From positions 24,947 through 88,946 of IMG/VR virus record IMGVR_UViG_3300009187_000021: a DNA stretch of 64,000 nt. The stretch is one strand, 5' to 3'. Below are positions 3,001 through 25,473 of the stretch, piece after piece. The notes under the pieces are model-generated. The model had not been told where the DNA came from. It saw nothing but the letters and a program-made list of their open reading frames with translations, and ran no database searches. The translations under genes were made by a program, and so were the position numbers. Numbering within the stretch: position 1 is the stretch's first letter; each line of letters begins with the position of its first letter. The stretch is from a virus.

Positions 3001-6000
3001 TATTCGCTGTTGTGTAATCTGATTTTCCTGTAATTTCACCAGTTGAAGTGTTTAATTTCAGAATATCAGGTAAAGCAGGAGATATACTATATGTTAATGG
3101 ATCAAAACCACCAGTAGCTACAATCGGAGTAAATTCATCAACAAGTTTATATTTAACTACAGTCTTAGTTGGAGTGTTTACAGTTGCAGACAATAATGGA
3201 GCAGAAGCTGTAAGAAAGAATGTACTACTCGTACTATTATTTAAAATGTCTGTTGCTGTGATTGTGTAAGATGTATTTGTGCTGAGTGAGGTTGTCAGAC
3301 CAGTAATTGCACCGGTTGTTGCACTTAATTTTAATCCAGTTGGCAAACTTGGACCAATAGAATATCTTAGTGGTTGATATCCACCAGTTGCAACAACTGG
3401 AATAACTGATGTTAATGCTAGTGATGTTGTAACATTGACCGAAGGAACAACTGTATTTGCAACCAATGCTGGTGGAACTGTAACACCCATAATAAATGTA
3501 TTGGTGTTTACTTTTCCTTCAGAGTCAGTAATAGTAATTGTGTATGTTGTATTTCCAACTATACTTGCTGAGTTACCAGTAATAAGACCACTGTTACTAT
3601 TGATCTCAACATACTCTGGCAAAGTAGGCGAAACAGAATATGTGTATGGTGTAAATCCACCTTTGGCTTCTACTGGTGTAAATGGTGTTAATACCAAATA
3701 TCGGTACAACTGAGTGTTGCCGGTCGTTGTTCTGTTTGCCAATAATGGTTGATTGATCGACGTTAGATAGAATGAACTATTACTGTTTTGACTTATAGCA
3801 TCAGTAGCAGTAACAACATACAAAGCGTTCGCGGATTTCTCAGACGATAGACCAGATATTACACCATTGTTTTTATCGAATATTAAACCAGTAGGTAATG
3901 TTGGTGTTATTGAGAATGTAAGTGTTCCAAATCCACCAGTTGCTGTGACTGGAGTGAACGGTGTATCATCTACTAACTTGATGACAGTCTTGACTGGAAT
4001 TACAGTAGTTGTCGCCAATACAGGAGGAACTTCAACCGTCAATACAAATGATTTAGATCCAGATTTGCCAGATGAATCTGTTACTGTTATAGTATGAGTA
4101 GTTGGACCAACAGAAAATGTTGCAGTTCCAGTAATTTTACCAGTCGTTGCAGATAGTGACAGTCCTGCTGTTAGTGCAGGAGAAACTGAGAATGTATATA
4201 CTCCAGATCCACCTGTCGCAGTGACAGGAGCAAACTCTGTTGTTGCAACGCCTCTAAATATTGATTGTGTTGGTATTGCTTGTTTTACTACTAGAGTTGG
4301 ACTATCGATTGTGAGTGAGAATGTACTGTTACTAATTTGTTGTGCTTGATCACGAACGGTAACAATATAATTATTAGCATTTGCAAAAGATGCAGCAGTT
4401 CCAGAAATCGCACCAGTGGCAGCATTGATTGCTAATCCAGATGGTAAAGTTGGAGTAGTGCTCCAAGATAATGTGCCATAACCACCAGTTGCAGTAACTG
4501 GAGAAAATGCAGTTGCCGGTTCGCCTGCCACAACATTCTGCGAAGGAATTACTGTGGTTGTAACAAGTGGAGTTGGTGCATTAACGGTTAGATAGAATGT
4601 CTTATTAACACTGGTTGGTGTTTGATCTGTTGCCGTAATTACATATGTTGTATTCGAATGTACTGCATTGGCTGTACCATCAATCTCACCAGTTGTTGTT
4701 GAGAAAGTTAATAGTGGATGTAATGCAGGCGAAATAGAATATGTAATCGTACCTGTTCCACCCGTTGCCGTCACTGGAATGAAAGCATTTACTTCCACAT
4801 TTGAAGTAATAATTTTTGATGGAATTTCTAGAGTAGAAGATAGTGCTGTTGCCGCAACAGAAAGTGAAAATGTTTTACTACTAGTTTGTGATGCTTGATC
4901 CGTGACTGTAACAGTATATGTTGTTACAGAACTGGTTGCAGTTGGAGTTCCAGATATTGCACCATTCGTTGTAGAGAATGTCAGTCCTGTAGGCAGTGCT
5001 GGTGAAATAGCATATGCTAGTGTTCCAAATCCACCGGATGCGGTGACTGGTGTAAACGTTGGTGCTAAAATATTCTTAGTTAATGTAGTAGTTGGAACTA
5101 CTTGTGTTGTTGTTAATGCAAGTAGTGCATCAACTACAAGCGTGAAGGTAGCAGTCGCTGTTAATGGTACTGCACCCGCATCTTTAATTGTAACCGTATA
5201 CAGTGTTGAAGAACTTGGTACAGTTGCAGTACCAGTAATTGCACCAAGTGAAGAGAAAGTTAATCCAGCAGGCAGTGCTGGTAAAACTGTAAATGTTAAT
5301 ACTCCTGTACCGCCTGTTGCGGTCACTGGAGTGAACGATGTTGTTGCAATGTTCTGTTGTAACGTCTTAGTTGGAATAACAGTCTTTGCAATCAAAGGAA
5401 TGGATTCAACTGATAGTGAGAATGTTTCAGATTTAGATTGAGGAGGAGATCCAGAATCTGTAACTGTTACTGTGTATGTCGTTGCAGGCGATGCGGTAGC
5501 ACTAGTACCTGTGATTTCACCAGTAGATGTGTTGAGTGTGAATCCAGTAGGCAACGGTGGAGCGATTGCGAATGTTATTGCACCGGATCCACCAGATGCA
5601 ACAACTGGAGTATATCCCGATTCGGCAACACCAACCGTTTCAGTCTTAGTTGGAACTGATTGAGTTAATGCTAAAATAGATGCAGTTGCTGTACTTAAAC
5701 TAAATGAAATTGATCCAGATAAACCAGAAGAATCTGTTACTGTGACTTTATAAGAAGTTAGAGGTGTTGCTGCTGACGCTGCACCTGTGATCGACAATTT
5801 AATACTATTATAAAGTGATCCATTAACTGTGATTGTCGAGAATACTTTATTTAAAGTTAGTCCAGCAGGCAGTGCAGGAGAAATGCTATAGTTTAATCCA
5901 ACAAATGTACCAGATGTGCTATACGAAGTTGCAATTGCGCCACCGCCATAGACTGTTCCAATATCAAAGTCAACAGTTTGTGATAAATTTAAATTCTTAG

Positions 6001-7730: not shown

Positions 7731-9614
7731 TCAAGAGGGATTCTTTAATTTCTCTATTTCTTCTTTTAAAGATGTTACCTGAGAATTTAATTCTTTGATG
7801 GATTCAATCAATAATCCTACCATGTTTCCATATGCGACAGTATACATGCCACTGTGAGTTGTAGACACAGCTTCTGGTAGAACATTAATCAATTCTTGTG
7901 CAATCACACCAGTCTGAGAACCAACATCAATATCAGTTCTTTCAAAAGTATATCCAGATATCTTATTCACTTTTTCTAGAGCATTTTCAATAACTTTGAT
8001 ATTTTTTTTCAGTCTCGCGTCAGAGTATGCAGTTACGTTGCCGCCGCAAGTTAAGTCTGTTCCATTATAAGTTAGTCCAGAACCAGTTGCTAGTGCTGAT
8101 CCAGAAGATGCATACACAACACCACCAGAAGTAAATGAACTTAGTCCAGTACCACCTTGGTTTGTCGGTACTGTTCCAGAAGATGTTAACTTCTTGTTTC
8201 CATCCGTGAATACTGGTTTGGTTGCAGTGAGTGTTGCAGCAGTAATATCACCGGTGATTACTGCCTCAGATCCAACATATAGTTTTTTAATAATGCCAAC
8301 GCCACCACCAACAACTAATGCACCAGTGCTAGTTGAAGATGAATCTGTTGCAGAGAAAATTGTTGCATTAGCACCAACGTTTATAAAACTGTCAGTAGAG
8401 ATGCTTCCGTTTGAATATATTCTCTTAGCAACGCCAAGACCGCCTTTTACTACTACTGCACCAACAATTGGACTTGCTGCATCTGTAGTATTATTTGCAT
8501 AAATAACACCGTTTGATGAGATGCTTCCAGTAACATTCAATCTCAGTGCAACTCCAAGACCGCCCTTAGTCTGTATAGCACCAGTAGAATCACTGAAAGA
8601 TTCTGCTGCATAATTTACATAGAGTGGACCGGAAGAACTTATAGATCCATCTGAATGTATACTAGTACCTGCAATTAAATTAGCAACACCAAGACCACCA
8701 GCAACTACTGCTGCACCATTATTGTATGAAGTTGATTCTGTTGTGTCATTTACCTTGAATATGCCGCCAACATTCAACCTTTTAGTAATACCAACTCCAC
8801 CAGCAGTTACTATTGCACCCGTTGATACAGATGTTGATTCATTTGTGTTAGCAAAATATGCTGAACCAGTTACTGCTAAATTTGCACCAAGTGTTGTGTT
8901 GCCAGAAACAGTTAATCTTTGACCAATATCTACGTTTGCAGAAACTATCATCGAGTTTGAGATGTTAACTTTACCGCCAAGTTGAATCTCAGCAGTTGAT
9001 TGTACCTTCATAGTGCCACCAATATAGATATCACCACCGATACCCATACCACCAGTGACAACAAATGCACCAGAACTAATTGATGTCGAATCTCTACTGT
9101 TAGGAATTACAACTGTACCAGATGCATCAAGATAAATGTCATCACTTGTGTCGTTAGTAACTTGAATGTGTAACTTTCTTGCATCACCAGCAGTCGCATA
9201 GTACTTAATGTTTGCAGAATCGCCAGTCGTTCCGCCCAGAAATGAAATACCATTTGATCCAGATCCAAAAGTTGGCATAATCATACCGCCAACTAGAAGA
9301 TTACCAAGAATGTTTGCAGTACCATTAGCTAAGAAACTAGTTCCTGTATTCGAAAGATAAAGTTGTCTTTGTACAGTTAAATCATTCTGAACTGTTGCAG
9401 ATGATCCAGAACCGGCAACAGTTAAGACACCCTGTACGATTGCATCATTCTTGACCAGTAGACCCGTGCCAGAACTATTAATTGTGAACGTGCCAGAATC
9501 TTTGATGTAGTTGTTCGCACCAATATCATTGGTTTCTGCCAGAACTTTGTTCGTCGTGACAACCCAATCACCAAAAGTATTGGCATATCCTAATGGTACT
9601 ACTTGATTAGACAT
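7731..9614 (-). CDS. Tail fibre protein with C-terminal intramolecular chaperone (peptidase S74) domain
   Basis: Repeats of STSxSTGAxVVxGGxGI; C-terminal YSDARLKKNI...GVIAQE...YGNMVGLLIESIKEL is the S74 auto-cleaving chaperone signature. Confidence 0.85.
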   Translation of the reverse strand: MSNQVVPLGYANTFGDWVVTTNKVLAETNDIGANNYIKDSGTFTINSSGTGLLVKNDAIVQGVLTVAGSGSSATVQNDLTVQRQLYLSNTGTSFLANGTANILGNLLVGGMIMPTFGSGSNGISFLGGTTGDSANIKYYATAGDARKLHIQVTNDTSDDIYLDASGTVVIPNSRDSTSISSGAFVVTGGMGIGGDIYIGGTMKVQSTAEIQLGGKVNISNSMIVSANVDIGQRLTVSGNTTLGANLAVTGSAYFANTNESTSVSTGAIVTAGGVGITKRLNVGGIFKVNDTTESTSYNNGAAVVAGGLGVANLIAGTSIHSDGSISSSGPLYVNYAAESFSDSTGAIQTKGGLGVALRLNVTGSISSNGVIYANNTTDAASPIVGAVVVKGGLGVAKRIYSNGSISTDSFINVGANATIFSATDSSSTSTGALVVGGGVGIIKKLYVGSEAVITGDITAATLTATKPVFTDGNKKLTSSGTVPTNQGGTGLSSFTSGGVVYASSGSALATGSGLTYNGTDLTCGGNVTAYSDARLKKNIKVIENALEKVNKISGYTFERTDIDVGSQTGVIAQELINVLPEAVSTTHSGMYTVAYGNMVGLLIESIKELNSQVTSLKEEIEKLKNPS

Positions 9615-9841: not shown

Positions 9842-11500
9842 TCAGATATCACCCGTAGGTAATGCAATAACTCTCAAATCTTTGACAAATGGTGAGAAAG
9901 TCGAATCTGCCGATGCCATTACAATTTTAATGGCATATTTGTAGAAGTCATTAAATATTAATCCAGTCTTTGGATTAGTATATGATACATAGTTTTGTGA
10001 AACACCAGCAGTACCTGGTGCCAATTCAAATTCAATCAAATCGTCTCTTGTTGCAGAATATCTAATAGATTTACTAATCGAAGTCATTTGTTGCCAATTC
10101 GCTTCTTCAATAATCAGAGTATCATCTCTCGAAATAATCTTATAGTAAACAAAGATCTTTGTATTCGTTGGGCGATATGCAGTAAGGAATACACGTAGAT
10201 CACCAGAATCATTACCGGCAGCGAGAGTGACTGGATATGTTTGATATCTAACTAGTCCATTACCACCAGAGACTGATGTTTCACCATATACTACTACGTT
10301 TGCAGGAGTAGTGTTTGCGGCAGAGATCGAGATTGTTGGATTCTTAGAGTATCCAGAACCAGGAGTAGTGACATACACACTAGTTAATACACCTGATGTA
10401 ATATAACCCTCAACGATTGCCTGAACACCATCTGCTTCGTTTGGCGCCGACACAGTGATATTGCCCGATATCTTTCCGTTAGCGCCGCTTAAATATCCTC
10501 CACCTCCACCAGTAATAGTAATTATATTATTTGATATAGGCATATTATTAATAATGTTCTTGATCACAAAGATATTAGTGCCATCATCAGAAATAACCGG
10601 TGAAACTCTTTCATCTTCAGTTGTTAATTTTGCATTTAAATAAAAAGAATTTCTTGTATCGTTAAGAGTAAGAACTCGTTTGCCGTTGTTATCATTCAAG
10701 TAGATGTTATTGACAGCTCGAGTTGCATAATCACCAGGATTTACAATCTTAGAAGCTTCAAGTAAGAATGTAGTATTCAACATTGTTTGCGATGTGTATA
10801 CAATATTTGTTTTCTCTGGTTTATGGTGTGATGTTGAAAGATTGTATTGATCGTATACAACATTGGCTGAATACTTTTTGTTCGCACTCGATTCAACGAT
10901 GTTAGTTTTTTGTAATCCATCAGAAACAATAAACTTTAATGTTGGTGAAACAGAGGTATCAAAACTACATCTGTTGATTACAAACATTAAGTCTCTTGTT
11001 TGATCCGCATCATAGTTAATACCATTCTGAGATTCAAACAATGTTCCAATGTAAGGACTTTTTGCAATCTTAGATAGTGTTGTTGGTGTAGGATCTGTCG
11101 ATAAATCTTTGACAGAAGATGCCAATGGTGTATCATTCTGTTGGGCGCACCACAAATTATAACCAGATGAATTGGTTCTTAGAACGAATGCATACAATTC
11201 ACCAGATTTCACATACACTGGTGCTGGGAATTTAAATTCCGTGTATGTCGTTGAGTCGATATACTGTGGTGAAGTTGAAACCTTAATGTCAACTGGATAT
11301 AAAACAACCTCAGAAAAGTCCAACATCTTTGCAGTTGGATATGCACTTTGAGTTGTTACGATAGCAAGATGCACTGGAATCTGAACAGTTGGTTTCGTTT
11401 TGAAGAACAATCGAATAGAACTTAGAAATACACCGTACGGATAAGATGCATCATCAATAATAAATGATTGTGCTAACGGATCTAAGATAGTTATTGCCAT
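9842..11500 (-). CDS. DUF4815/VrlC-like virion protein, C-terminal fragment
   Basis: Begins with DPLAQSF; contains GTLFESQNG, DLMFVINRC and ends PFVKDLRVIAL, matching the C-terminal part of VrlC-like T4-type proteins. Confidence 0.75.
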   Translation of the reverse strand: MAITILDPLAQSFIIDDASYPYGVFLSSIRLFFKTKPTVQIPVHLAIVTTQSAYPTAKMLDFSEVVLYPVDIKVSTSPQYIDSTTYTEFKFPAPVYVKSGELYAFVLRTNSSGYNLWCAQQNDTPLASSVKDLSTDPTPTTLSKIAKSPYIGTLFESQNGINYDADQTRDLMFVINRCSFDTSVSPTLKFIVSDGLQKTNIVESSANKKYSANVVYDQYNLSTSHHKPEKTNIVYTSQTMLNTTFLLEASKIVNPGDYATRAVNNIYLNDNNGKRVLTLNDTRNSFYLNAKLTTEDERVSPVISDDGTNIFVIKNIINNMPISNNIITITGGGGGYLSGANGKISGNITVSAPNEADGVQAIVEGYITSGVLTSVYVTTPGSGYSKNPTISISAANTTPANVVVYGETSVSGGNGLVRYQTYPVTLAAGNDSGDLRVFLTAYRPTNTKIFVYYKIISRDDTLIIEEANWQQMTSISKSIRYSATRDDLIEFELAPGTAGVSQNYVSYTNPKTGLIFNDFYKYAIKIVMASADSTFSPFVKDLRVIALPTGDI

Positions 11501-13021
11501 TTAAAATAGTTCCATATTCGTTCGTTCTGTTGACTTAACATTGTGTGAAATCAATCCTTCTGTGATATATGTATGCGCTTGATCAATCTCAAATTTAATG
11601 ACTTCACCGTCACCAATGTCTGTAATAGAAACAATTTCTTTACTACTCAGATCATAAATTACATCATAGTTCATTCCCATTACAGATTCACCAACGGAAA
11701 TATCACACACTTTTTTCCAAGAATCATCAGACATTAAAAATTTATGCGTAGAAGAGACTTTAAGTTTTTTACCATTAGCAAATTCAATTTCAACTTTAGG
11801 TTGAATCATTCTTTCTGCTTCTAGAATCTTGAATGTTCCAGGTTCTCTTGAGTGTTCGTGAATCGTTATAACTTTATCGCCAACATTTAAATCGCCGGCA
11901 CGAACCCAATGTGAATCTTCACAGAAAATTAGTGTGTCTGGATCTGGACAACCACCACCATATGAAACATCGTTAATAGGAACTAATGTACCATTAGTGA
12001 TAGCATCGAGTGCACCATCTGATTGACGATATATTTCAGTTGCTGACGTGGTTGTTCCTCGACTTGTTGTTGTCGTAGAAGCACCAGTACCAGCAGAGAA
12101 TTGTGAATCAGCAGCCTTATCAAATGTACCAGAAGCAAAATAAGTTGCCTGTGCATATGTTGTTTCAGATCCTAATTGATTCACATAATTACCGGTGGTT
12201 GGATCAGTGCCAACATATCTGTTATCAAGTCTAAAGATTCTGTTACCTGTTGGGAAAATACCACCACGAAGATAGAATACACCGGAACATTTACCGATTT
12301 CATTACTTGATGGTTTTCCAATAGAATATGTACTCTGACCAGCAATAAAAGATAGTCCACCTGCACTTAATGTTGCAACTTTTGTTGTTCCATTATATGC
12401 AGTAATTGTTCTGACAGGATAATCCGCAACAACTTCATCTGTGTATGTGGTGTCGGATGAAGTATTTGTTGAAACAGTAATGATGTTAAACGTATTACCA
12501 TTGTAGTAATTATTTACAGAAGATGCTCTGCCATTCAGTGTAACGTATTGTGTAGATGTATTTGATACAGCAACTTTACCAGATAGATGACCGAAAGCAG
12601 AAATAGTACCAGAATCGGTAGAGTTTACATATACACCATATGAATCATAGTATGCATTATAAAGAGTACCACCCACAACTAAATCGGTAGGAATATTATC
12701 AAAGTCATCAATGATGTAAAGTCTCATATCAACTATAGTACCAGAACCTTTCTTATATACGTCAATAATTGTTCCGGTCTTGATAAAACTAGAATTTGTT
12801 GGTTTGTATCCAACGACATCGCCGACTTTAAAATTACCAGATGTGTTTGTAACATCGATGGTATTTGGTCTTCTGATTAATCGTGTGACGCGATACTCAT
12901 CAAACCATGCATCAAGTTCTGTGTCAGAAAGTAAATTCGACACATTAAAAGTGATTTGTTTCTCACGGCAGTATGGAACTACTGGTGGTATTGTTGCAGT
13001 TGTCGTTATAGTTGTTGCCAT
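11501..13021 (-). CDS. DUF4815/VrlC-like virion protein, middle fragment, with C-terminal Hint domain
   Basis: PYCREKQITFNVSNL...WFD and FPTGNRIFRL...AQATYFASG match the middle region of VrlC-like proteins; Hint domain at the C-terminus. Confidence 0.75.
   Translation of the reverse strand: MATTITTTATIPPVVPYCREKQITFNVSNLLSDTELDAWFDEYRVTRLIRRPNTIDVTNTSGNFKVGDVVGYKPTNSSFIKTGTIIDVYKKGSGTIVDMRLYIIDDFDNIPTDLVVGGTLYNAYYDSYGVYVNSTDSGTISAFGHLSGKVAVSNTSTQYVTLNGRASSVNNYYNGNTFNIITVSTNTSSDTTYTDEVVADYPVRTITAYNGTTKVATLSAGGLSFIAGQSTYSIGKPSSNEIGKCSGVFYLRGGIFPTGNRIFRLDNRYVGTDPTTGNYVNQLGSETTYAQATYFASGTFDKAADSQFSAGTGASTTTTSRGTTTSATEIYRQSDGALDAITNGTLVPINDVSYGGGCPDPDTLIFCEDSHWVRAGDLNVGDKVITIHEHSREPGTFKILEAERMIQPKVEIEFANGKKLKVSSTHKFLMSDDSWKKVCDISVGESVMGMNYDVIYDLSSKEIVSITDIGDGEVIKFEIDQAHTYITEGLISHNVKSTERTNMELF
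11540..11950 (-). other. Hint (intein-like auto-processing) domain, 137 aa, no endonuclease
   Basis: GGG|CPDPDTLI...VRAGDLNVGDKV (block A), KVSSTHKFL (block B), FEIDQAHTYITEGLISHN|V (blocks F/G). Confidence 0.88.
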
Positions 13022-13031
13022 TTTTTATCTC

Positions 13032-16000
13032 TTAAAAATCAATTACTTGTTCAAATTGGACATACATAACATCACCGTAGTATGCAATTCTAAGTGCCAT
13101 ACATCCTATATCAAGTGTGTTTGTTGCGTCATAATACAATGTGTGATTGCCAGCTGTAACATATATAGAGGTCGCGTATACATTAGAAGGTGCATACACC
13201 GGTGTGTTGAAACCGTTAGTTGTTGTTACACCACCAGCATAAGCCATTCCAGATGAACCAAAAACATTAGTGCCATCTAGTGTTACGGTTCCAGTATCAT
13301 CAACTGAACCTTCAAATAGATAGTATCCAGATTTAGTAAATGTGACGGTATATGTTCTGTTGAATGTTTTATTTGTTCTACCTAAATCTGCATATCCCCA
13401 AACACCAAATTCATTTCTAAATTGACCAGCATCTCCCTGTTGTGAAGTGTATACCGCAGCACTTCCAGTTGGTGGATTATTGCTCGTGAATATTGCATTA
13501 ATTGATGTGCCAGGAATGGGACCAACCTTGATATACTCAGGTGGAGGTATATCTTTAGTCACAGGACCTTGACTTGATGGAGGAGTATATACATCTATCC
13601 AGTTATCAATAGCTGGAGAAATTGTCATCAGACCTTCGACGTTTCTGGTAGTGAAAGAGTTGATGTTAACTTCGCGTGATGCTAATTTCTGAACAACCAA
13701 TTCTTTCTGTGTGTATGGTAGAGTGAAAACGTTTGTTGTTCCAACTTTGTGTGGTTGATAGAACAACTCAGAAACTGCCTGTTCAACTGAAATAGGTTTA
13801 GCAACAACAGGATCATAATCTTTATTGTAAAGATCGAAAGATTCTGTTGTAGTTGCAGGAGATAAAGTTCCGTTTGTCGTATCAATTTGTGCAAAGTAAC
13901 TATTATTATAAGTATCTGCGACAGAGAAAGTTGTGAAGTTGTCAACAAGAATACCATTCTTGAATCGATTCAAACCAAAGTTATCTTGGATTTGTAAAGA
14001 AGTTGCAGACTGTTCAAGAAGATTTAATGATGTGTAATACTCTAGGTTCTCAATTCTTTCATTCAGTCCAGAGATATCTTTCATCAACCATGTCCTATGT
14101 GTGATAGGAATGATCGATAGATTTGGAATAACACCAGGATACTCGCCAGGAATGTATGCTGTGTATGGATCATACACCAGTTTTGCAAGTATAAGACTAT
14201 TCGATTCTTCTGGTGGATATGCAGGTGTCAACGATGGTACACCTTGAACCAATTTGATAACAGAATCTTTAGTGAGAACTAATAGATCTTTTCTACCCAA
14301 ATAGTAGTAGTAATCTGAAGTAAACGAAGACTCATCTTCTGGTAACAATGAACCATAGAAATTACTTGTCGTAGGAGTTACAGAATATTTAAATAAGTTT
14401 ATATCAGATTGAACATTCCTAACTTGTGGTCTGAAATCAATACAATCTCTTAATTGATATGTTGTGCCGCCAGAAGATGTGAATGTTCCAATCTCTGCAT
14501 AATTTTCATTTGAATATGAATTAATATTAAAGTATCCGTCACCGCCAGAATGTTCATAGTAATCAAATAGAATCCACAATCTAGTTGGAACTGGATAACC
14601 AGGTTTCAATGAAATCGATGCGTGACCATAGTATGTGTCACGTTGACCATTATCAAACGAGAAGTTATTAGTGACATCTTTATTAGTATCAGTCAACATC
14701 GATAGTGTCGGTGTTGCTGCACCAGGATCAACAATCTTGACGATTTTCTTAACGTCAGACACATAAAGAGATTGTGGAAGTCCAGATGTGACGATTGCAG
14801 AACTACTGTTAACGTAGATTTGACCCTTAGATAAATCTATTAATGTGTTAGTGTTAACAATCCCAGAAGCACCAACGATACCTAATCCATAGGTATTTGC
14901 AGTAGCTAAAGTCTTAGTCTTTCTGACATAACTTGTGTTGTCAGCACCAATAATATTCATGCGTGAGTAAATCGATGCAGTAAATGGTAACAAATCTGGT
15001 GCAGAGAATGTTGCTGTAGTCTTCTGTGAATTGACAACAACAGTTCTATTAAGTCCTGCGATTGCATTTCCAACAAAAGGAATAATCTGACCATTAGTCA
15101 AGTTTGCATTCGACTGTTTATCAGTACATACGACAATAAAGTTTTGTTTAATCGAATCGATGCTTTCAGCAGAACCAGTTCTAATAAAGTTCAATACAGA
15201 TTGTGCAGCAACATCAATCGTAAGTGCTTTGTAAACACCTGTAGTAGTTGTTGTGAATGCTTGACCTCGATAAACTTGTGTAGAAACATATGATGCATCT
15301 GATACAGAAGATACATATGGATTACCAAGTTGAAAAACTAATTCTGCATCGCCCGCGTCTGCAACAAATGTATCACCAGTCGAAAGAGAACCAACCTTAC
15401 TTCTGTTGTCGATCTGTGCAGAACCATAAACAGTAAATGGTGCAGATCCACCAACTTTTGCAAAACTTTCAATGTCTTTTACTGCACTCTTGATAGAGAA
15501 TTTTGAAGCGTTTGTTGGCAATACAGTAAAGACTGGTGAAACTTTCAATATTTTAATTGTTGAGTTTGCAAAATATGTTTCAATAGTTCTAGTTTGCCCA
15601 GCACCAGGACCGCTATCGATAGATAGAATCATGCCACCATATAAGTTTGCCACACGGGTGCTAAATGTTGCGAGTGTATTATTATTAACAGAAACAGTGT
15701 TCGCATTAGCAAACTCAACATTTCCAGATAAAGATTTAACCGTTAAATCTGATATGTGTGCTTTGTACACATAAGATGTTGTATCAGAATCAGTTCCGCT
15801 GGTATTATAACGAAGATAACGTAATCGACCAGTCGCAGCAAGAGTTGAATTATATGTCATCGTATTCGTAGTTGTAACCATTGCTGTATTACAAATATGA
15901 AAATCGATTGCTTGTGATGTTGTCGTATCAATGTAGTCGCCGTTGGCGCCTGCAAGTGTATTCACATAGAAGTAATTACCATATGCAGGAGTAACAATAT

Positions 16001-17108
16001 TGTTATTAATGTTTGCAGTTGTTCTTGCTCTATCGGCATCTAGTTTTAGAGTGCTTTGATTTTCTGTTCTGTAACCATGAACATACGCAAGACCAGGGCC
16101 AACATTAAGAATATACTTGTCAGTTCCTGAAGTGAAAGTATTCTTCGAAGGAATTATACTAAAATTCTTGACAACAAAGTCACCATTAGTTTCAAATGTT
16201 CTCTTTGCAAAGTAGTCATCAATCTGTGAATATGACGTAGAATTAACTTGACGAATGATTTCACCAGACTCAACTCGTGCCAATTCAATAAAGTTCGAAT
16301 CAGCACCTGCACCATCAGTTGACTTCTTAGTTGTCAGAGTTAAATTGATTGTATATCTGTCTGCGCCTGGTCCTTGAAAGTTCGATGAACCTAATGCTGG
16401 ATCCAACAATGTTGAATCTGTAACATAGTCTGTGACATACTCAACAATATCTAGACCAATTCTAGCGTTTGGAGTATTATCATACTTGTTTAGAATGATT
16501 GTCTGTGGTAACACATCGACAAAGTTACCAATGGAATACTTGTTGTATGTACCATCATCATTTTCTTTAGACGATGTTGAGTAACCATTGACAACATAAA
16601 ATATGCCATTTGCAACTGACGCAATCGAAGATTTACCATTTGCATTTGATGTAACAGTTGTTGCAACAGTACCATTCTCTATTGTGTCTAGTATTAAAAC
16701 ATTAGCACTGTTTGTAAACTTAGTCGAAGAAGAATATGTTAGAATTAGAGTAGGAGGATCGCCATCAGCTACACCCTCTTCAGTTGCAACAACATAAGCT
16801 ATAACTTTACCTGTAGCGTCCGTGATATATTGATTTTTAAAATCAGATGCAACGATTTCTGAACCAGCATACTCATAGTTTAGTTTTAGATATTCGACAT
16901 TAGTGTCAATCGTTAACTTACCGCCTTTGATTGGCGTGTTCTGTGTGAAGAAGTGATCCGCAAAATTAGAGATTTGATTCTGAAGAATCGTCTGCGCCTG
17001 AGTTAACTCTCTTGCTTGAACTGCACGACCTGGTCTAAAAAGAATCTTGTGATAATTATTACTTGGATCAAAATCGTCATAATAGGGATCCACATTAAAA
17101 TTTAACAT
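13032..17108 (-). CDS. DUF4815/VrlC-like virion protein, N-terminal fragment, with C-terminal PA14-like domain
   Basis: NFNVDPYYDDFD...ILFRPGRAVQARELTQ, PGADRY, LEYYTSLNLLE and NRFKNGILVDNF are hallmark motifs; the C-terminal YLFEGSVDDTGTVTLDG...GNHTL is PA14-like. Confidence 0.85.
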   Translation of the reverse strand: MLNFNVDPYYDDFDPSNNYHKILFRPGRAVQARELTQAQTILQNQISNFADHFFTQNTPIKGGKLTIDTNVEYLKLNYEYAGSEIVASDFKNQYITDATGKVIAYVVATEEGVADGDPPTLILTYSSSTKFTNSANVLILDTIENGTVATTVTSNANGKSSIASVANGIFYVVNGYSTSSKENDDGTYNKYSIGNFVDVLPQTIILNKYDNTPNARIGLDIVEYVTDYVTDSTLLDPALGSSNFQGPGADRYTINLTLTTKKSTDGAGADSNFIELARVESGEIIRQVNSTSYSQIDDYFAKRTFETNGDFVVKNFSIIPSKNTFTSGTDKYILNVGPGLAYVHGYRTENQSTLKLDADRARTTANINNNIVTPAYGNYFYVNTLAGANGDYIDTTTSQAIDFHICNTAMVTTTNTMTYNSTLAATGRLRYLRYNTSGTDSDTTSYVYKAHISDLTVKSLSGNVEFANANTVSVNNNTLATFSTRVANLYGGMILSIDSGPGAGQTRTIETYFANSTIKILKVSPVFTVLPTNASKFSIKSAVKDIESFAKVGGSAPFTVYGSAQIDNRSKVGSLSTGDTFVADAGDAELVFQLGNPYVSSVSDASYVSTQVYRGQAFTTTTTGVYKALTIDVAAQSVLNFIRTGSAESIDSIKQNFIVVCTDKQSNANLTNGQIIPFVGNAIAGLNRTVVVNSQKTTATFSAPDLLPFTASIYSRMNIIGADNTSYVRKTKTLATANTYGLGIVGASGIVNTNTLIDLSKGQIYVNSSSAIVTSGLPQSLYVSDVKKIVKIVDPGAATPTLSMLTDTNKDVTNNFSFDNGQRDTYYGHASISLKPGYPVPTRLWILFDYYEHSGGDGYFNINSYSNENYAEIGTFTSSGGTTYQLRDCIDFRPQVRNVQSDINLFKYSVTPTTSNFYGSLLPEDESSFTSDYYYYLGRKDLLVLTKDSVIKLVQGVPSLTPAYPPEESNSLILAKLVYDPYTAYIPGEYPGVIPNLSIIPITHRTWLMKDISGLNERIENLEYYTSLNLLEQSATSLQIQDNFGLNRFKNGILVDNFTTFSVADTYNNSYFAQIDTTNGTLSPATTTESFDLYNKDYDPVVAKPISVEQAVSELFYQPHKVGTTNVFTLPYTQKELVVQKLASREVNINSFTTRNVEGLMTISPAIDNWIDVYTPPSSQGPVTKDIPPPEYIKVGPIPGTSINAIFTSNNPPTGSAAVYTSQQGDAGQFRNEFGVWGYADLGRTNKTFNRTYTVTFTKSGYYLFEGSVDDTGTVTLDGTNVFGSSGMAYAGGVTTTNGFNTPVYAPSNVYATSIYVTAGNHTLYYDATNTLDIGCMALRIAYYGDVMYVQFEQVIDF

Positions 17109-23365: not shown

Positions 23366-25473
23366 TATCTTTGAATTGCAGTAACAGTTACTTCTACAGA
23401 GGTTGGATCAAACTCATCGATTGTTAATATTCTATTATATTCTGATGTGAGAATAGTTGATGCAGGAACAGCAGATAACTTTAGATATCCAAATTCATTA
23501 TTAATTGCAGATGCAGAGAAATCTTTGAGTGTTACAATTCCATCATTGTAACTAATAGTTCCTGCGTTAGCGTTGATAGTTTCAGCAATCGCACCCTTAT
23601 AATAAAATGTTTCAAGATTACCAGTTGCAGAATCAAGTGTTGCGGTGGCCGATGCTAATTGTCCTGTCTTATCACTAATTGATGGTTTTATAGTAACTAC
23701 CGCATAGGTATAACCTAATCCTCCACTTGTAACATCAATTCTGATTACTCTACCATTTGCGAGAACTGCTGTTGCTTCGGCAAAGTCACCATCACCTTCA
23801 ATCGTAACAGTTGGTGTTTTGGTGTAATTAAAACCTTGATTAGTAACATTGATTGCCGTGACACTACCTACGATTTTACCATTAATTGGTGGAATCTCTC
23901 TGTAATATACACCAGTTCTTGTGACTGGTGCAATTAAAGCATTAGAACTATCGACTACAGTAATATCTGGCTCAGTATAAAAAGAAGACTGAACCATAAC
24001 ATCAGAATAATTACGTTTAAGTGGGAATCCAAACTTTGCTTGATATGTTGCATTAGAATTCAACACAGGATATAGTTTCTTCTCAACTCTAAGTTCTGTT
24101 TCGTTTGTTAAAATTGAAAGATCACAGTATTGAATTGCTGTGATTAATTGTGGCAATCTTAACGTAGCATTAAATGTGTTCAGAGTTGTCGTAGAGAAGT
24201 TTCTAATTACAGAGATAACCAATTGTTTAAGTTGTCCAGGTGTCAAAGTTGTCTTCTTTGGATCATATAACACAGTAGTTCTTAACTTGACGTATGTGTA
24301 ATCCGGATCAACAATCGTTGGCAATACTGTCATCACCGAAACTGGTTTGATAACATCGACAATCAACTTCTGTTTTTGTGATTCAGTTAATGAATATCCA
24401 CCAGAAGGTTTAATCGAACAGAATACTCTACCATATACTGGAGGATCATTCTCTTCACCACCCCAAACAGTAACCGATTGGATAGGTAATGCAGTTGAAT
24501 TCTTCTGAATCAAATACATATAGTCTTCTTTGGTAACCGCTCTACCTTGTGCAGAGTATGCTTTGGGTGCAGTATACTTGACAGAATTAATTGATTCTTT
24601 ATCTTTGCCTTCAGTTGCAGCAGAAACAGAAGATACTGATACGTTAGAATAACCACCCACTCTAGACATTATTGAGAAACTATTGGCACCAAATGAAACA
24701 GTACCGTCTGTTGCAACGTATGTGATATTGACAACATTATCATCTTTAAGTGCGTAGCCTAAAATTCCATCGCCGAAATAGATTTGATACTTTCCGTTTA
24801 GTCCTTCTTGTAAGAAGTAAACTTTAGTCGAAGGACCTAGTGCCAAGTAATCTGAAACTTGTGTGTATGTCTCAAATGTCAAATTAGTAGAAGACTCTTG
24901 TACATTAACAACAATCGTCGATGTATCGATTGTGGAATCTGGAATATCAAATGTCAACTTTGGATTCGTAGTCTTATTGACTGTGAAACTATATGATGCA
25001 GAAGTTCCTTGAATGATACTAACATCATCAAAGATTGCAGTATTCGCAGTTACATTAGTTGTATATGCATCTGTCGTAACAAAAGTATAGTTAACAGAAT
25101 CAATTGCTTCAGAAATGAATGGTGTAAATTTAGGTAATGTCAGAGACGCATCGGATACACCATTAACCGTAATCTTAACAGTTGCACGTGGTGCAGATGC
25201 AGAAGATGGCATATAGTTCAACAACTTCGCATGAGAAATTACAGAGTTTCTTTGTACAGCAGAATCGAGAAACATCTCATTTGCAACCATATTTAAATAG
25301 TATGCATTATATTGAGTGTTGTATGCAAGAAGATCGATTAGAACGGATAGTGCAGATGCATCATAGTTATAGTCTTTAAGTTTATCCTGTTGTTGCAGAA
25401 ACGTCTTAAAACTATCTTTAATAGAATTAAAGTCTAGATTGGTAATTTGAAGACCAGAGTTTGCTGATGCCAT
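23365..25473 (-). CDS. gp6: Baseplate wedge subunit gp6
   Basis: LDFNSIK, LLAYNTQYNAYY, EMFLDSA, IYFGDG, QGRAVTKEDY, VWGGEENDPPVYG. Confidence 0.95.
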   Translation of the reverse strand: MASANSGLQITNLDFNSIKDSFKTFLQQQDKLKDYNYDASALSVLIDLLAYNTQYNAYYLNMVANEMFLDSAVQRNSVISHAKLLNYMPSSASAPRATVKITVNGVSDASLTLPKFTPFISEAIDSVNYTFVTTDAYTTNVTANTAIFDDVSIIQGTSASYSFTVNKTTNPKLTFDIPDSTIDTSTIVVNVQESSTNLTFETYTQVSDYLALGPSTKVYFLQEGLNGKYQIYFGDGILGYALKDDNVVNITYVATDGTVSFGANSFSIMSRVGGYSNVSVSSVSAATEGKDKESINSVKYTAPKAYSAQGRAVTKEDYMYLIQKNSTALPIQSVTVWGGEENDPPVYGRVFCSIKPSGGYSLTESQKQKLIVDVIKPVSVMTVLPTIVDPDYTYVKLRTTVLYDPKKTTLTPGQLKQLVISVIRNFSTTTLNTFNATLRLPQLITAIQYCDLSILTNETELRVEKKLYPVLNSNATYQAKFGFPLKRNYSDVMVQSSFYTEPDITVVDSSNALIAPVTRTGVYYREIPPINGKIVGSVTAINVTNQGFNYTKTPTVTIEGDGDFAEATAVLANGRVIRIDVTSGGLGYTYAVVTIKPSISDKTGQLASATATLDSATGNLETFYYKGAIAETINANAGTISYNDGIVTLKDFSASAINNEFGYLKLSAVPASTILTSEYNRILTIDEFDPTSVEVTVTAIQR

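Follow-up and report, generated by a model that had tools for sequence, protein, structure and literature searches.

In an uncultured T4-like marine phage, a predicted non-splicing Hint domain caps the middle fragment of the split baseplate protein VrlC/DUF4815

The stretch of DNA analyzed here (the window) comprises 64,000 nt, positions 24,947 to 88,946 of IMG/VR record IMGVR_UViG_3300009187_000021, and comes from an uncultured T4-like, pelagimyophage-like marine phage in which the VrlC/DUF4815 baseplate protein is encoded in three pieces on the minus strand. Fragment 1 (13032-17108; 1358 aa) matches PF16075 (DUF4815, E = 2e-53) and positions 5-1115 of phrog_358, and, in the fused protein of Ochrobactrum phage OC (1942 aa), aligns with residues 14-1123. 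The open reading frame of fragment 2 (11501-13021; 506 aa) begins with a host domain (aa 1-300, 12122-13021) representing the central VrlC region with its PY.R..I.F block, which aligns weakly by BLASTP with residues 1214-1320 of the OC protein and is 40-50% identical to the corresponding stretch of metagenomic VrlC proteins that are fused or half-fused. Alignment of homologues delimits a variable Ser/Thr-rich linker behind it (aa 301-357, 11951-12121), which is mosaic across homologues (mean pairwise identity, 0.57) and ends in an invariant G355-G356-G357 (11959-11951). Fragment 3 (9842-11500; 552 aa), starting MAITILDPLAQSF, is the C-terminal VrlC module, matching phrog_358 at positions 1421-1584 and onward and OC residues 1384-1541 and 1798-1940. 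Genes in the neighborhood match gp25/gp6/gp7/gp8-type baseplate wedge PHROGs, and the gene order around the split gene is identical in phage OC. The DUF4815 N-terminal part, central PY.R block, DPLAQSF C-terminal module and gp6/gp7/gp8-like neighbors together identify the host gene as VrlC/DUF4815. No enzyme was found among the genes adjoining split VrlC, nor did any gene of the 88.9-kb record (~53% complete) match PF00583 or PF13302, as a dedicated acetyltransferase partner would.

Read on the minus strand, fragment 2 runs ...NDVSYGGG|CPDPDTLIF...KVSSTHKF...ITEGLISHN|VKSTERTNMELF*, and homology, fold and invariant catalytic residues place a 137-aa Hint domain at aa 358-494 (11540-11950). Its translation includes Cys358 in block A (CPDPDTLI; 11950-11948), Thr425-His426 in block B (SSTH; 11749-11744) and His493-Asn494 in block G (11545-11540), while Lys476 occupies the position in block F where Asp is expected. 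The Cys358 codon, TGT, is a single change away from TGA. The +1 residue, Val495 (11539-11537), opens the C-flank tail VKSTERTNMELF (aa 495-506, 11504-11539), in which only Lys496 (+2) is conserved and AF2 pLDDT stays below 60. No curated Pfam or NCBIfam model, PF14890, TIGR01445 and TIGR01443 included, attains its own cut-off on this domain; PF14890 is a borderline miss (E = 1.7e-8, 34.9 bits versus a cut-off of 35.8) with homology nonetheless present, TIGR01445 scores 13.9 versus 24.5, and PT-HINT (PF07591) has no match in fragment 2 and only sub-threshold matches in relatives. Direct comparisons gave matches to terminase mini-inteins (tblastn, E = 8e-9) and to the NpuDnaB mini-intein 4o1r (phmmer, E = 2.8e-5), and a family profile matched the gp41-1 intein 6qaz (E = 1.8e-12), the C. 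thermocellum BIL 2lwy (E = 4e-8) and BIL2 6y75 (E = 1e-5). The AF2 model of the Hint core (pLDDT ~96) retrieved dozens of inteins, BILs and Hedgehog domains with Foldseek, among them 4o1r (E = 2.4e-11, TM 0.87), 6y75 (E = 8e-10), 2lwy (E = 6.7e-8) and the Hedgehog structure 1at0 (E = 2.8e-7). With the β-fold, N-terminal Cys nucleophile and block-B His of the Hint superfamily all present, the domain is a genuine mini-intein-type Hint fold, an assignment far above chance. Thus, the initial annotation, which had placed a Hint domain with these residues after GGG at the fragment 2/3 junction, is borne out by translation, homology and structure prediction. No further Hint copy was found in the same ~53% complete genome record.

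Judged by its sequence signature, CPDP...SHN-(x)K, the fragment 2 Hint belongs to a large metagenomic family that appears to be confined to phages. Across 149 cluster representatives (<50% identity), the block-B His is retained in ~98%, and Cys1 and the terminal His-Asn in nearly all. Lys occupies +1 or +2 in 136/144 members, while Cys, Ser or Thr stands at +1 in just 6, leaving 138 of the 144 without a +1 nucleophile. Gly precedes Cys1 in 71/138 members, and the domain often closes the protein after a poly-Gly stretch; tails are ≤15 aa long in 49/146, and C-terminal caps make up about one third of the family. A literature search returned no description of a large phage-specific Hint branch in which Lys replaces the +1 nucleophile.

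The two genes meet at 11498-11503 on the minus strand, where the TAA of fragment 2 (11503-11501) abuts the in-frame ATG of fragment 3 (11500-11498). This arrangement, pointed out in the initial annotation, holds here and in a locus of 93% identity (L006) and is not generally conserved, as in a locus of 70% identity (L002) the genes are set apart by 18 nt, in frame, that include another TAA. With the fragment 2 frame ending 12 codons past Asn494 and a separate ATG opening fragment 3, there is no in-frame C-extein. Read-through or recoding of the stop into a fragment 2-3 fusion is rejected in view of the two in-frame TAAs in L002 and the retention of the stop in all ~28 homologues of ~500 aa; nor would the fused product possess a nucleophile at +1. 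Translational bypass of the T4 gene 60 type also appears unlikely: no matching take-off and landing codons were seen, and the tail sequence is unconstrained. Separately encoded homologues of fragment 3 form at least 66 clusters and start M(A/S)xTxL-DPLAQSF; those in all 11 Hint-clade clusters begin MA(I/L)T, so that removal of Met would expose an N-terminal Ala, which offers no side-chain nucleophile, and the first Lys of fragment 3 lies at position 34.

Homologues in which VrlC is fused show what else occupies this junction. The OC protein reads ...GGG-PDPVAQTF, fused homologues at loci L003 and L004 read ...GGDGGGDGGA-DPLAQTF, and another (P0213) reads ...PPPQQNR-DPLAQSF. By these alignments, GGG is best read as the remnant of the Gly-rich linker that fused VrlC/DUF4815 homologues carry immediately ahead of DPLAQSF, and not as the ubiquitin-like tail evolved for ligation that had been proposed. 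Two fused VrlC proteins (P0214 and P0234) carry an unrelated Hint in frame at the same junction, with Lys at +1 (HN|K), and further lineages have a third Hint type or CFI-box caps that look non-catalytic. Comparison of P0214 with P0213 suggests that the Gly-rich leader and Lys flank accompany the Hint module. The fragment 2 Hint probably arrived as a mobile module consisting of Gly-rich leader, Hint and Lys, at the point where the linker of an ancestrally continuous VrlC passed into DPLAQSF. The tail of P0044 (...SHN|AKVIDPLA) resembles the same Hint type running into DPLAQSF; the related loci L010 and L011 encode different virion proteins. Fission between fragments 2 and 3 also occurs in lineages whose fragment 2 ends in a non-Hint cap, indicating that re-joining to fragment 3, as had been suggested, is not needed for function; the nucleophile-free start of fragment 3 also speaks against it.

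Close homologues (n = 17, 70-99% identity) retain GGG|C, the Thr/Ser-His of block B (Thr being conservatively replaced) and His-Asn without exception. Their +1 residue is Val in 13, Gln in 3 and Lys in 1, never Cys, Ser or Thr, and Lys is present at +1 or +2 in every one; the Hint alignment yielded one confirmed locus in a metagenome scan and one in a further viral scan. Within fragment 2, conservation peaks in the Hint, with a mean identity of 0.86 versus 0.78 for the host domain and 0.35 for the tail, which outside its Lys evolves freely (dN ~0.9). Based on three DNA sequences with saturating dS (Hint, 1.3-1.4; host domain, 1.0), dN/dS is 0.06 for the Hint and 0.22 for the host domain. Since Hint dS equals or exceeds that of the host domain, recent horizontal spread is ruled out as the cause of Hint conservation for the compared pair.

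These data bear directly on whether the domain is a formerly ordinary intein, now decaying after loss of its C-extein nucleophile and left behind inactive when a mutation broke the frame between fragments 2 and 3. Such an origin would fit its position at a conserved motif boundary, typical of inteins, the in-frame stop and downstream ATG expected from point changes in a once-continuous frame, and the presence of true phage inteins such as gp41-1 among its closest sequence relatives. Nevertheless, decay is very improbable and already largely refuted, given invariant catalytic residues and a dN/dS of 0.06 at dS >1. Moreover, no homologue at any distance has Cys, Ser or Thr at +1 of this site, the in-frame Hints of fused VrlC also have Lys there, and the wider family mostly lacks a +1 nucleophile. 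The initial description of a catalytically intact Hint that is unable to splice canonically is therefore supported by the retained residues and the homologues at this site, and the decayed-intein test proposed with it did not refute it.

An alternative is a Hint that is never cleaved off and serves the baseplate in a structural or binding role, with catalytic residues kept for fold stability only. A constrained surface would fit the conservation of all 137 residues, which extends beyond blocks A, B, F and G, and CFI-box caps take the same spot in other lineages. The invariance of Cys1, block-B His and His-Asn within the clade and their near-universal retention across the family are, however, the signature of retained chemistry, and characterized BILs and inteins with the same residue set do cleave, making a purely structural role improbable.

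Among known systems, class 1 mini-inteins (gp41-1, 6qaz; Npu and Ssp DnaB, 4o1r and 1mi8) are the best sequence and structure matches, sharing blocks A, B, F and G, a length of ~137 aa without endonuclease, and insertion exactly at a conserved motif boundary. They differ from the phage Hint in having Cys, Ser or Thr instead of Val, Gln or Lys at +1, Asp instead of Lys in block F, and a C-extein. In Hedgehog/Hog proteins, a cargo domain is likewise joined through Gly|Cys to a C-terminal Hint in which the thioester falls to some nucleophile that is not a +1 residue; in contrast, the phage domain has no sterol-recognition region (12 residues follow it) and retains the terminal His-Asn that Hog lacks. 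A neighboring tail gene (7731-9614) encodes a Peptidase_S74 intramolecular chaperone, a self-cleaving C-terminal module of a phage tail protein that is removed after assembly and offers a functional parallel to the proposed Hint cap. Peptidase_S74 is a Ser-Lys dyad protease, unrelated in fold and chemistry to the Cys thioester Hint. A-type BILs (Amitai 2003; Dassa 2004), as described in PMC4031507 and PMC7765530, have Cys1 and a C-terminal His-Asn and lack a +1 nucleophile. The fragment 2 Hint shares all of these features and the block-B His and, like A-type BILs, sits in a variable region instead of a catalytic core, with N- and C-terminal cleavage as the main expected outcome. Unlike BILs, which occur in secreted bacterial proteins, it is part of a virion protein of an uncultured phage. 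In sequence, its family is closer to gp41-1 and the DnaB mini-inteins than to 2lwy. The family is marked by an initial CPDP, a Lys in position 4 of block F and another at +1/+2, and very often it caps a C-terminus after poly-Gly.

On balance, it appears rather probable that fragment 2 is capped by a non-splicing, BIL-type Hint that most likely removes itself, after which fragments 2 and 3 assemble non-covalently. The observed fold, catalytic residues, position, conservation and selection suggest the following chemistry. Cys358 would attack the carbonyl of Gly357, producing a thioester by N-S acyl shift; this thioester would be resolved intramolecularly, with water or the conserved Lys496 in the tail of the Hint itself as the attacking group; and cyclization of Asn494 would release the tail. 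The Hint would then be gone, and mature fragment 2 would consist of aa 1-357, its C-terminal Gly bearing either no tail or a short branched one. Fragment 3, translated from its own start codon, would join it non-covalently in the baseplate; because a separate fragment 3 is widespread, also behind non-Hint caps, no covalent link is required. Cleavage agrees with the behavior of BILs, which lack a +1 nucleophile and yield mainly cleavage products (PMC4031507; PMC7664689). At the same time, a Hint that should be easy to lose and yet is under strong purifying selection, in a family of which about one third are C-terminal caps, hints at a role beyond its own removal.

One such role would be intermolecular ligation, in which the Gly357 thioester is passed to a Lys side chain of another virion protein or to the N-terminal amine of fragment 3, which would cross-link the baseplate covalently with no enzyme involved. 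Transfer to an external amine, as envisaged in the initial annotation, has a precedent in Tetrahymena BUBL1 BIL2, which, according to PMC8616854, links the C-terminus of its N-extein to Lys ε-amines of several substrates as an isopeptide without ATP. BIL2 (6y75/6tmm; Chiarini 2021, cited in that source) shares with the phage domain the Hint fold, Cys1, the terminal Asn and a Gly-ended N-extein, and is among its closest structures; its Lys acceptor, giving an isopeptide instead of a peptide bond, has a putative counterpart in the conserved Lys at +1/+2 of the phage family. The near-universal Lys after His-Asn, together with the Gly-rich leader, resembles a Gly-to-Lys transfer device of the BUBL BIL2 kind. 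Strong purifying selection on an easily lost C-terminal cap, as well as a Gly-rich leader and Lys flank that seem to move with the Hint, would also suit ligation. Nonetheless, the phage N-extein is a baseplate domain plus linker, without a ubiquitin-like Pfam match (the AF2 model of full-length fragment 2, built from 17 sequences, reaches a pLDDT of only 36), its C-flank is the unconserved 12-aa tail and not a ubl domain, and identity to BIL2 is 13-14%. Fragment 3 has no N-terminal Ser, Thr or Cys in any of the 11 Hint-clade clusters and has its first Lys at position 34, and non-Hint caps tolerate the same fission. Finally, the conserved Lys lies in cis, within the Hint's own tail, favoring an intramolecular reaction. 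Ligation to another protein is accordingly regarded as unlikely.

It is similarly doubtful, though conceivable by analogy, that (Gly)n-Cys...His-Asn-(x)Lys constitutes a self-contained isopeptide-forming element, a viral counterpart of BUBL BIL2. Carrying both its own acceptor Lys and its Gly donor, such an element could colonize any flexible linker. If so, it would re-join the halves of fused VrlC (P0214 and P0234) through a Gly-Lys isopeptide, whereas as a C-terminal cap it would pass the Gly357 thioester to Lys496 or to a Lys of a neighboring baseplate protein, providing enzyme-free, ATP-free covalent maturation or cross-linking in phage virions.

To our knowledge, no protein modules besides inteins, BILs and Hedgehog domains are known to form thioesters in a self-contained manner. 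Judging by the literature search, the phage family described here is an unstudied branch of the Hint superfamily, in which a conserved Lys replaces the +1 nucleophile and the domain often caps virion proteins at their C-terminus. VrlC itself offers a natural experiment, since one core baseplate protein occurs with no insert, with an in-frame Hint followed by +1 Lys, with a Hint cap and fission, and with non-Hint caps. Should ligation prove true, the family would provide an enzyme-free protein-conjugation tool and a new mechanism of virion maturation; if cleavage is the only outcome, it would show intein-like elements driving gene fission in phage structural genes.

Fragments 1, 2, and 3 are consecutive minus-strand ORFs (13032-17108, 1358 aa; 11501-13021, 506 aa; and 9842-11500, 552 aa, respectively) that are assigned by homology as pieces of one VrlC/DUF4815-like baseplate protein, with fragment 1 covering positions 5-1115 of phrog_358 and fragment 3 covering 1421 onward. 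Genes upstream match gp25/gp6/gp7/gp8-type baseplate wedge families, and Ochrobactrum phage OC (Kyanoviridae) is annotated with the same gp7-gp8-VrlC order, its VrlC being a single 1942-aa chain. VrlC is a core pelagimyophage gene (PMC7029224); this role, together with composition and relatives whose contigs reach 164 kb, points to a pelagimyophage-like T4-type phage as the source of the 88.9-kb, ~53% complete virus record. A 10-nt gap (13022-13031) lies between fragments 1 and 2, which are in different frames. Their counterparts are fused (about 1670-1880 aa) in most relatives, indicating that the first split is specific to the window's clade, whereas the second is widespread.

ORF reading confirmed every element that the initial annotation had listed from the sequence alone, together with its coordinates. 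Fragment 2 ends ...NDVSYGGG/C358PDPDTLIF...KVSSTH426KF...ITEGLISH493N494/VKSTERTNMELF* (slashes mark domain borders), and its TAA (11503-11501) abuts, in the same frame, the ATG of fragment 3 (11500-11498). The C-terminal domain of fragment 2 is a genuine Hint/mini-intein fold. It matched Pfam Intein_splicing at E 1.7e-8, slightly below the model cut-off, terminase mini-inteins of Corynebacterium phages (tblastn, E 8e-9), and, by phmmer, the NpuDnaB mini-intein 4o1r (E 2.8e-5) as well as a DnaX mini-intein. A 45-sequence family profile matched the cyanophage-like gp41-1 intein (1.8e-12), the C. thermocellum BIL (bacterial intein-like) domain 2lwy (4e-8), and BIL2 of Tetrahymena BUBL1 (1e-5). 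The AF2 model has a core pLDDT of about 96 and a disordered tail, and its Foldseek neighbours include DnaB mini-inteins (E 2.4e-11, TM 0.87), BUBL1 BIL2 (8e-10), gp41-1, 2lwy, and Hedgehog 1at0. Whereas block F of DnaB inteins reads VFDLTV, with Asp, the aligned window sequence is VIKFEI, with Lys476 at the Asp position. Three genes downstream, a tail fibre gene (7731-9614, minus strand) carries a C-terminal Peptidase_S74 intramolecular-chaperone domain (E 1.2e-14); thus, two tail proteins of the locus end in different predicted self-cleaving modules.

Where the homologues are fused, the DPLAQSF motif directly follows a linker rich in Gly or Pro, as in phage OC (...ERGGG-PDPVAQTF), related viral loci L003/L004 (...DLGGGTGGDGGGDGGA-DPLAQTF), and the insert-free metagenomic protein P0213 (...TPPPQQNR-DPLAQSF). 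The matching elements in the window, ...SYGGG and MAITIL-DPLAQSF, are split apart by the Hint and its 12-aa tail, followed by a stop codon and a start codon. GGG, previously proposed to be a ubiquitin-like tail, is therefore better explained as the terminal part of the inter-domain linker of VrlC, which would place the Hint exactly at a module boundary. The linker preceding GGG (aa 301-357; 12122-11951, minus strand) is a mosaic among close relatives: identity is 0.81 in the host domain vs 0.96 in the linker for P0006, and 0.92 vs 0.56 for P0003, which suggests recombination inside the fragment 2 gene.

The fragment 2 architecture recurs in some 28 metagenomic proteins, roughly 500 aa in length and 70-99% identical. 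An alignment of 17 representatives shows no variation at G355-G356-G357-C358, T425-H426, or S492-H493-N494; the +1 residue, following Asn494, is V in 13, Q in 3, and K in 1. GGG/C is conserved in all 17 homologues, C/S/T is lacking at +1, and Lys occupies +1 or +2 in 17/17. Mean pairwise identity is 0.86 in the Hint, 0.78 in the host domain, 0.57 in the linker, and 0.35 in the tail. Between the window and related viral locus L002, Nei-Gojobori dN/dS is 0.06 for the Hint (dS 1.4) and 0.22 for the host domain (dS 1.0), with a tail dN of about 0.9, estimates that rest on three DNA sequences with dS near saturation. Together, these values indicate that the Hint has been present in these lineages for as long as the gene and is under stronger purifying selection than the host domain, in disagreement with a decayed ordinary intein. 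An inert intein remnant and an uncleaved structural domain both fit poorly with this selection and with the invariant catalytic set.

VrlC homologues are for the most part insert-free fused proteins about 2080-2150 aa long. However, in the fused proteins P0214 (2255 aa) and P0234 (2244 aa), a Hint of roughly 150 aa lies in frame at the linker/DPLAQSF junction (residues ~1530-1700), reading ...GGFGIGTGTG/CCFVAGTKI...NLVVHN/KGNP-DPLAQSF, with Lys at +1. Neither the Hint nor the Gly-rich leader or Lys flank is present in P0213, suggesting that leader and flank are both part of the inserted module. The P0214/P0234 Hint is distant kin to the window Hint (BLASTP similarity in block G only) and shares 31% identity with further Hint-like domains that make up a third set (P0192, with P0187/P0194 and L009 more distant). 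The domains of this third set terminate fusions of fragments 1+2, about 1875-1880 aa in length, and extend C-terminally by about 100 aa. In viral locus L009 (IMGVR_UViG_3300046009_015027, 3901-5309), the fused fragments 1+2 have a Hint-like end, GGGCG/CFIADTLID..., plus the ~100-aa extension, with weak matches to PF01079, PF05203, and PF14623, followed by an unannotated 186-aa gene and then fragment 3 (MAITGTSTVLLDPIAQSF). Fragment 2 or fragment 1+2 proteins, including P0029, P0190, and P0183-P0186, bear other caps at the same spot: either a CFI-box-CTERM domain (NF041770, E 1.6e-13) or a similar-looking one, GGGG/CCVVATALN..., with a hydrophobic C-terminal stretch. Cys is the first residue of every cap seen, and a Gly-rich linker precedes most. 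Fragment 3 proteins that have a gene of their own and start M(A/S)xTxL-DPLAQSF fall into at least 66 clusters and are found behind all of the above cap types. These comparisons indicate that fission at the fragment 2/3 junction is widespread and independent of the window-type Hint, that the junction is a hot spot for Cys-initiated C-terminal modules, and that at least two Hint lineages reached it independently.

Searching 1.84 billion representatives with the Hint by phmmer yielded 1112 matches at E <=1e-3 and 242 at <=1e-10. Nearly all of the top 149, mutually <50% identical, open with C-(P/V)-(D/T)-P-x-(T/V/M)-x-I and close with G-h-h-S-H-N. With denominators differing by feature, Lys is found at +1 or +2 in 136/144 and C/S/T at +1 in 6/144; Gly precedes the Cys in 71/138, and 80/138 have at least three Gly among the ten upstream residues. 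Tails are <=15 aa in 49/146 and >100 aa in 43/146. The cargo proteins are diverse and look adhesin-like or virion-protein-like; on two other viral contigs (L010, 293-4453, 1386 aa; L011, 383-4420, 1345 aa), the same cap sits on an unrelated virion-type protein ending GGGGG/CPDPMTPI...GLISHN/K..., and the tails there are 8-15 aa long. Curated Hint, intein, and PT-HINT models all stayed below threshold on family proteins, and no close member was found in cultured phages of the INPHARED set.

BIL domains have no +1 nucleophile, and cleavage is their main outcome; A-type BILs can also splice, through attack on the thioester by the alpha-amine that Asn cyclisation releases (PMC4031507; PMC7664689). 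Tetrahymena BUBL1 BIL2 makes a Lys(epsilon) isopeptide and, in an ATP-free reaction, attaches its N-extein to several substrates (PMC8616854). We infer every chemical step at the window Hint: a Gly357~Cys358 thioester would arise and be resolved by water or, in cis, by Lys496, Asn494 would cyclise, and the Hint would be lost, leaving mature fragment 2 to pair non-covalently with fragment 3. If the module already separated the halves, fission after its insertion would be expected to be neutral, and the stop and start, in frame with 0 or 18 nt between them, are loosely suggestive of point changes in a once-continuous ORF. Transfer of the Gly357 thioester to another protein, as the initial annotation proposed, seems rather unlikely, although a cap whose sole job is departure should be easily lost (the Cys358 codon TGT is one step from TGA), the Hint is under tighter constraint than its host domain, and a device for Gly-to-Lys transfer would require the Gly leader and Lys that the module carries. 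Against fragment 3 as the acceptor, MA(I/L)T opens every one of the 11 fragment 3 clusters in the Hint clade, which leaves Ala, whose side chain is not nucleophilic, at the N-terminus, and fission also works with non-Hint caps.

Cleavage is the favored reading, and P0214 and P0234 offer a natural test case for cutting vs lysine-mediated re-joining. Overall, what the initial annotation observed is borne out, whereas its interpretation has partial support. The window domain is a BIL-type Hint from a phage-borne, Lys-tailed family that is apparently undescribed so far, and its position in a core baseplate gene is informative.
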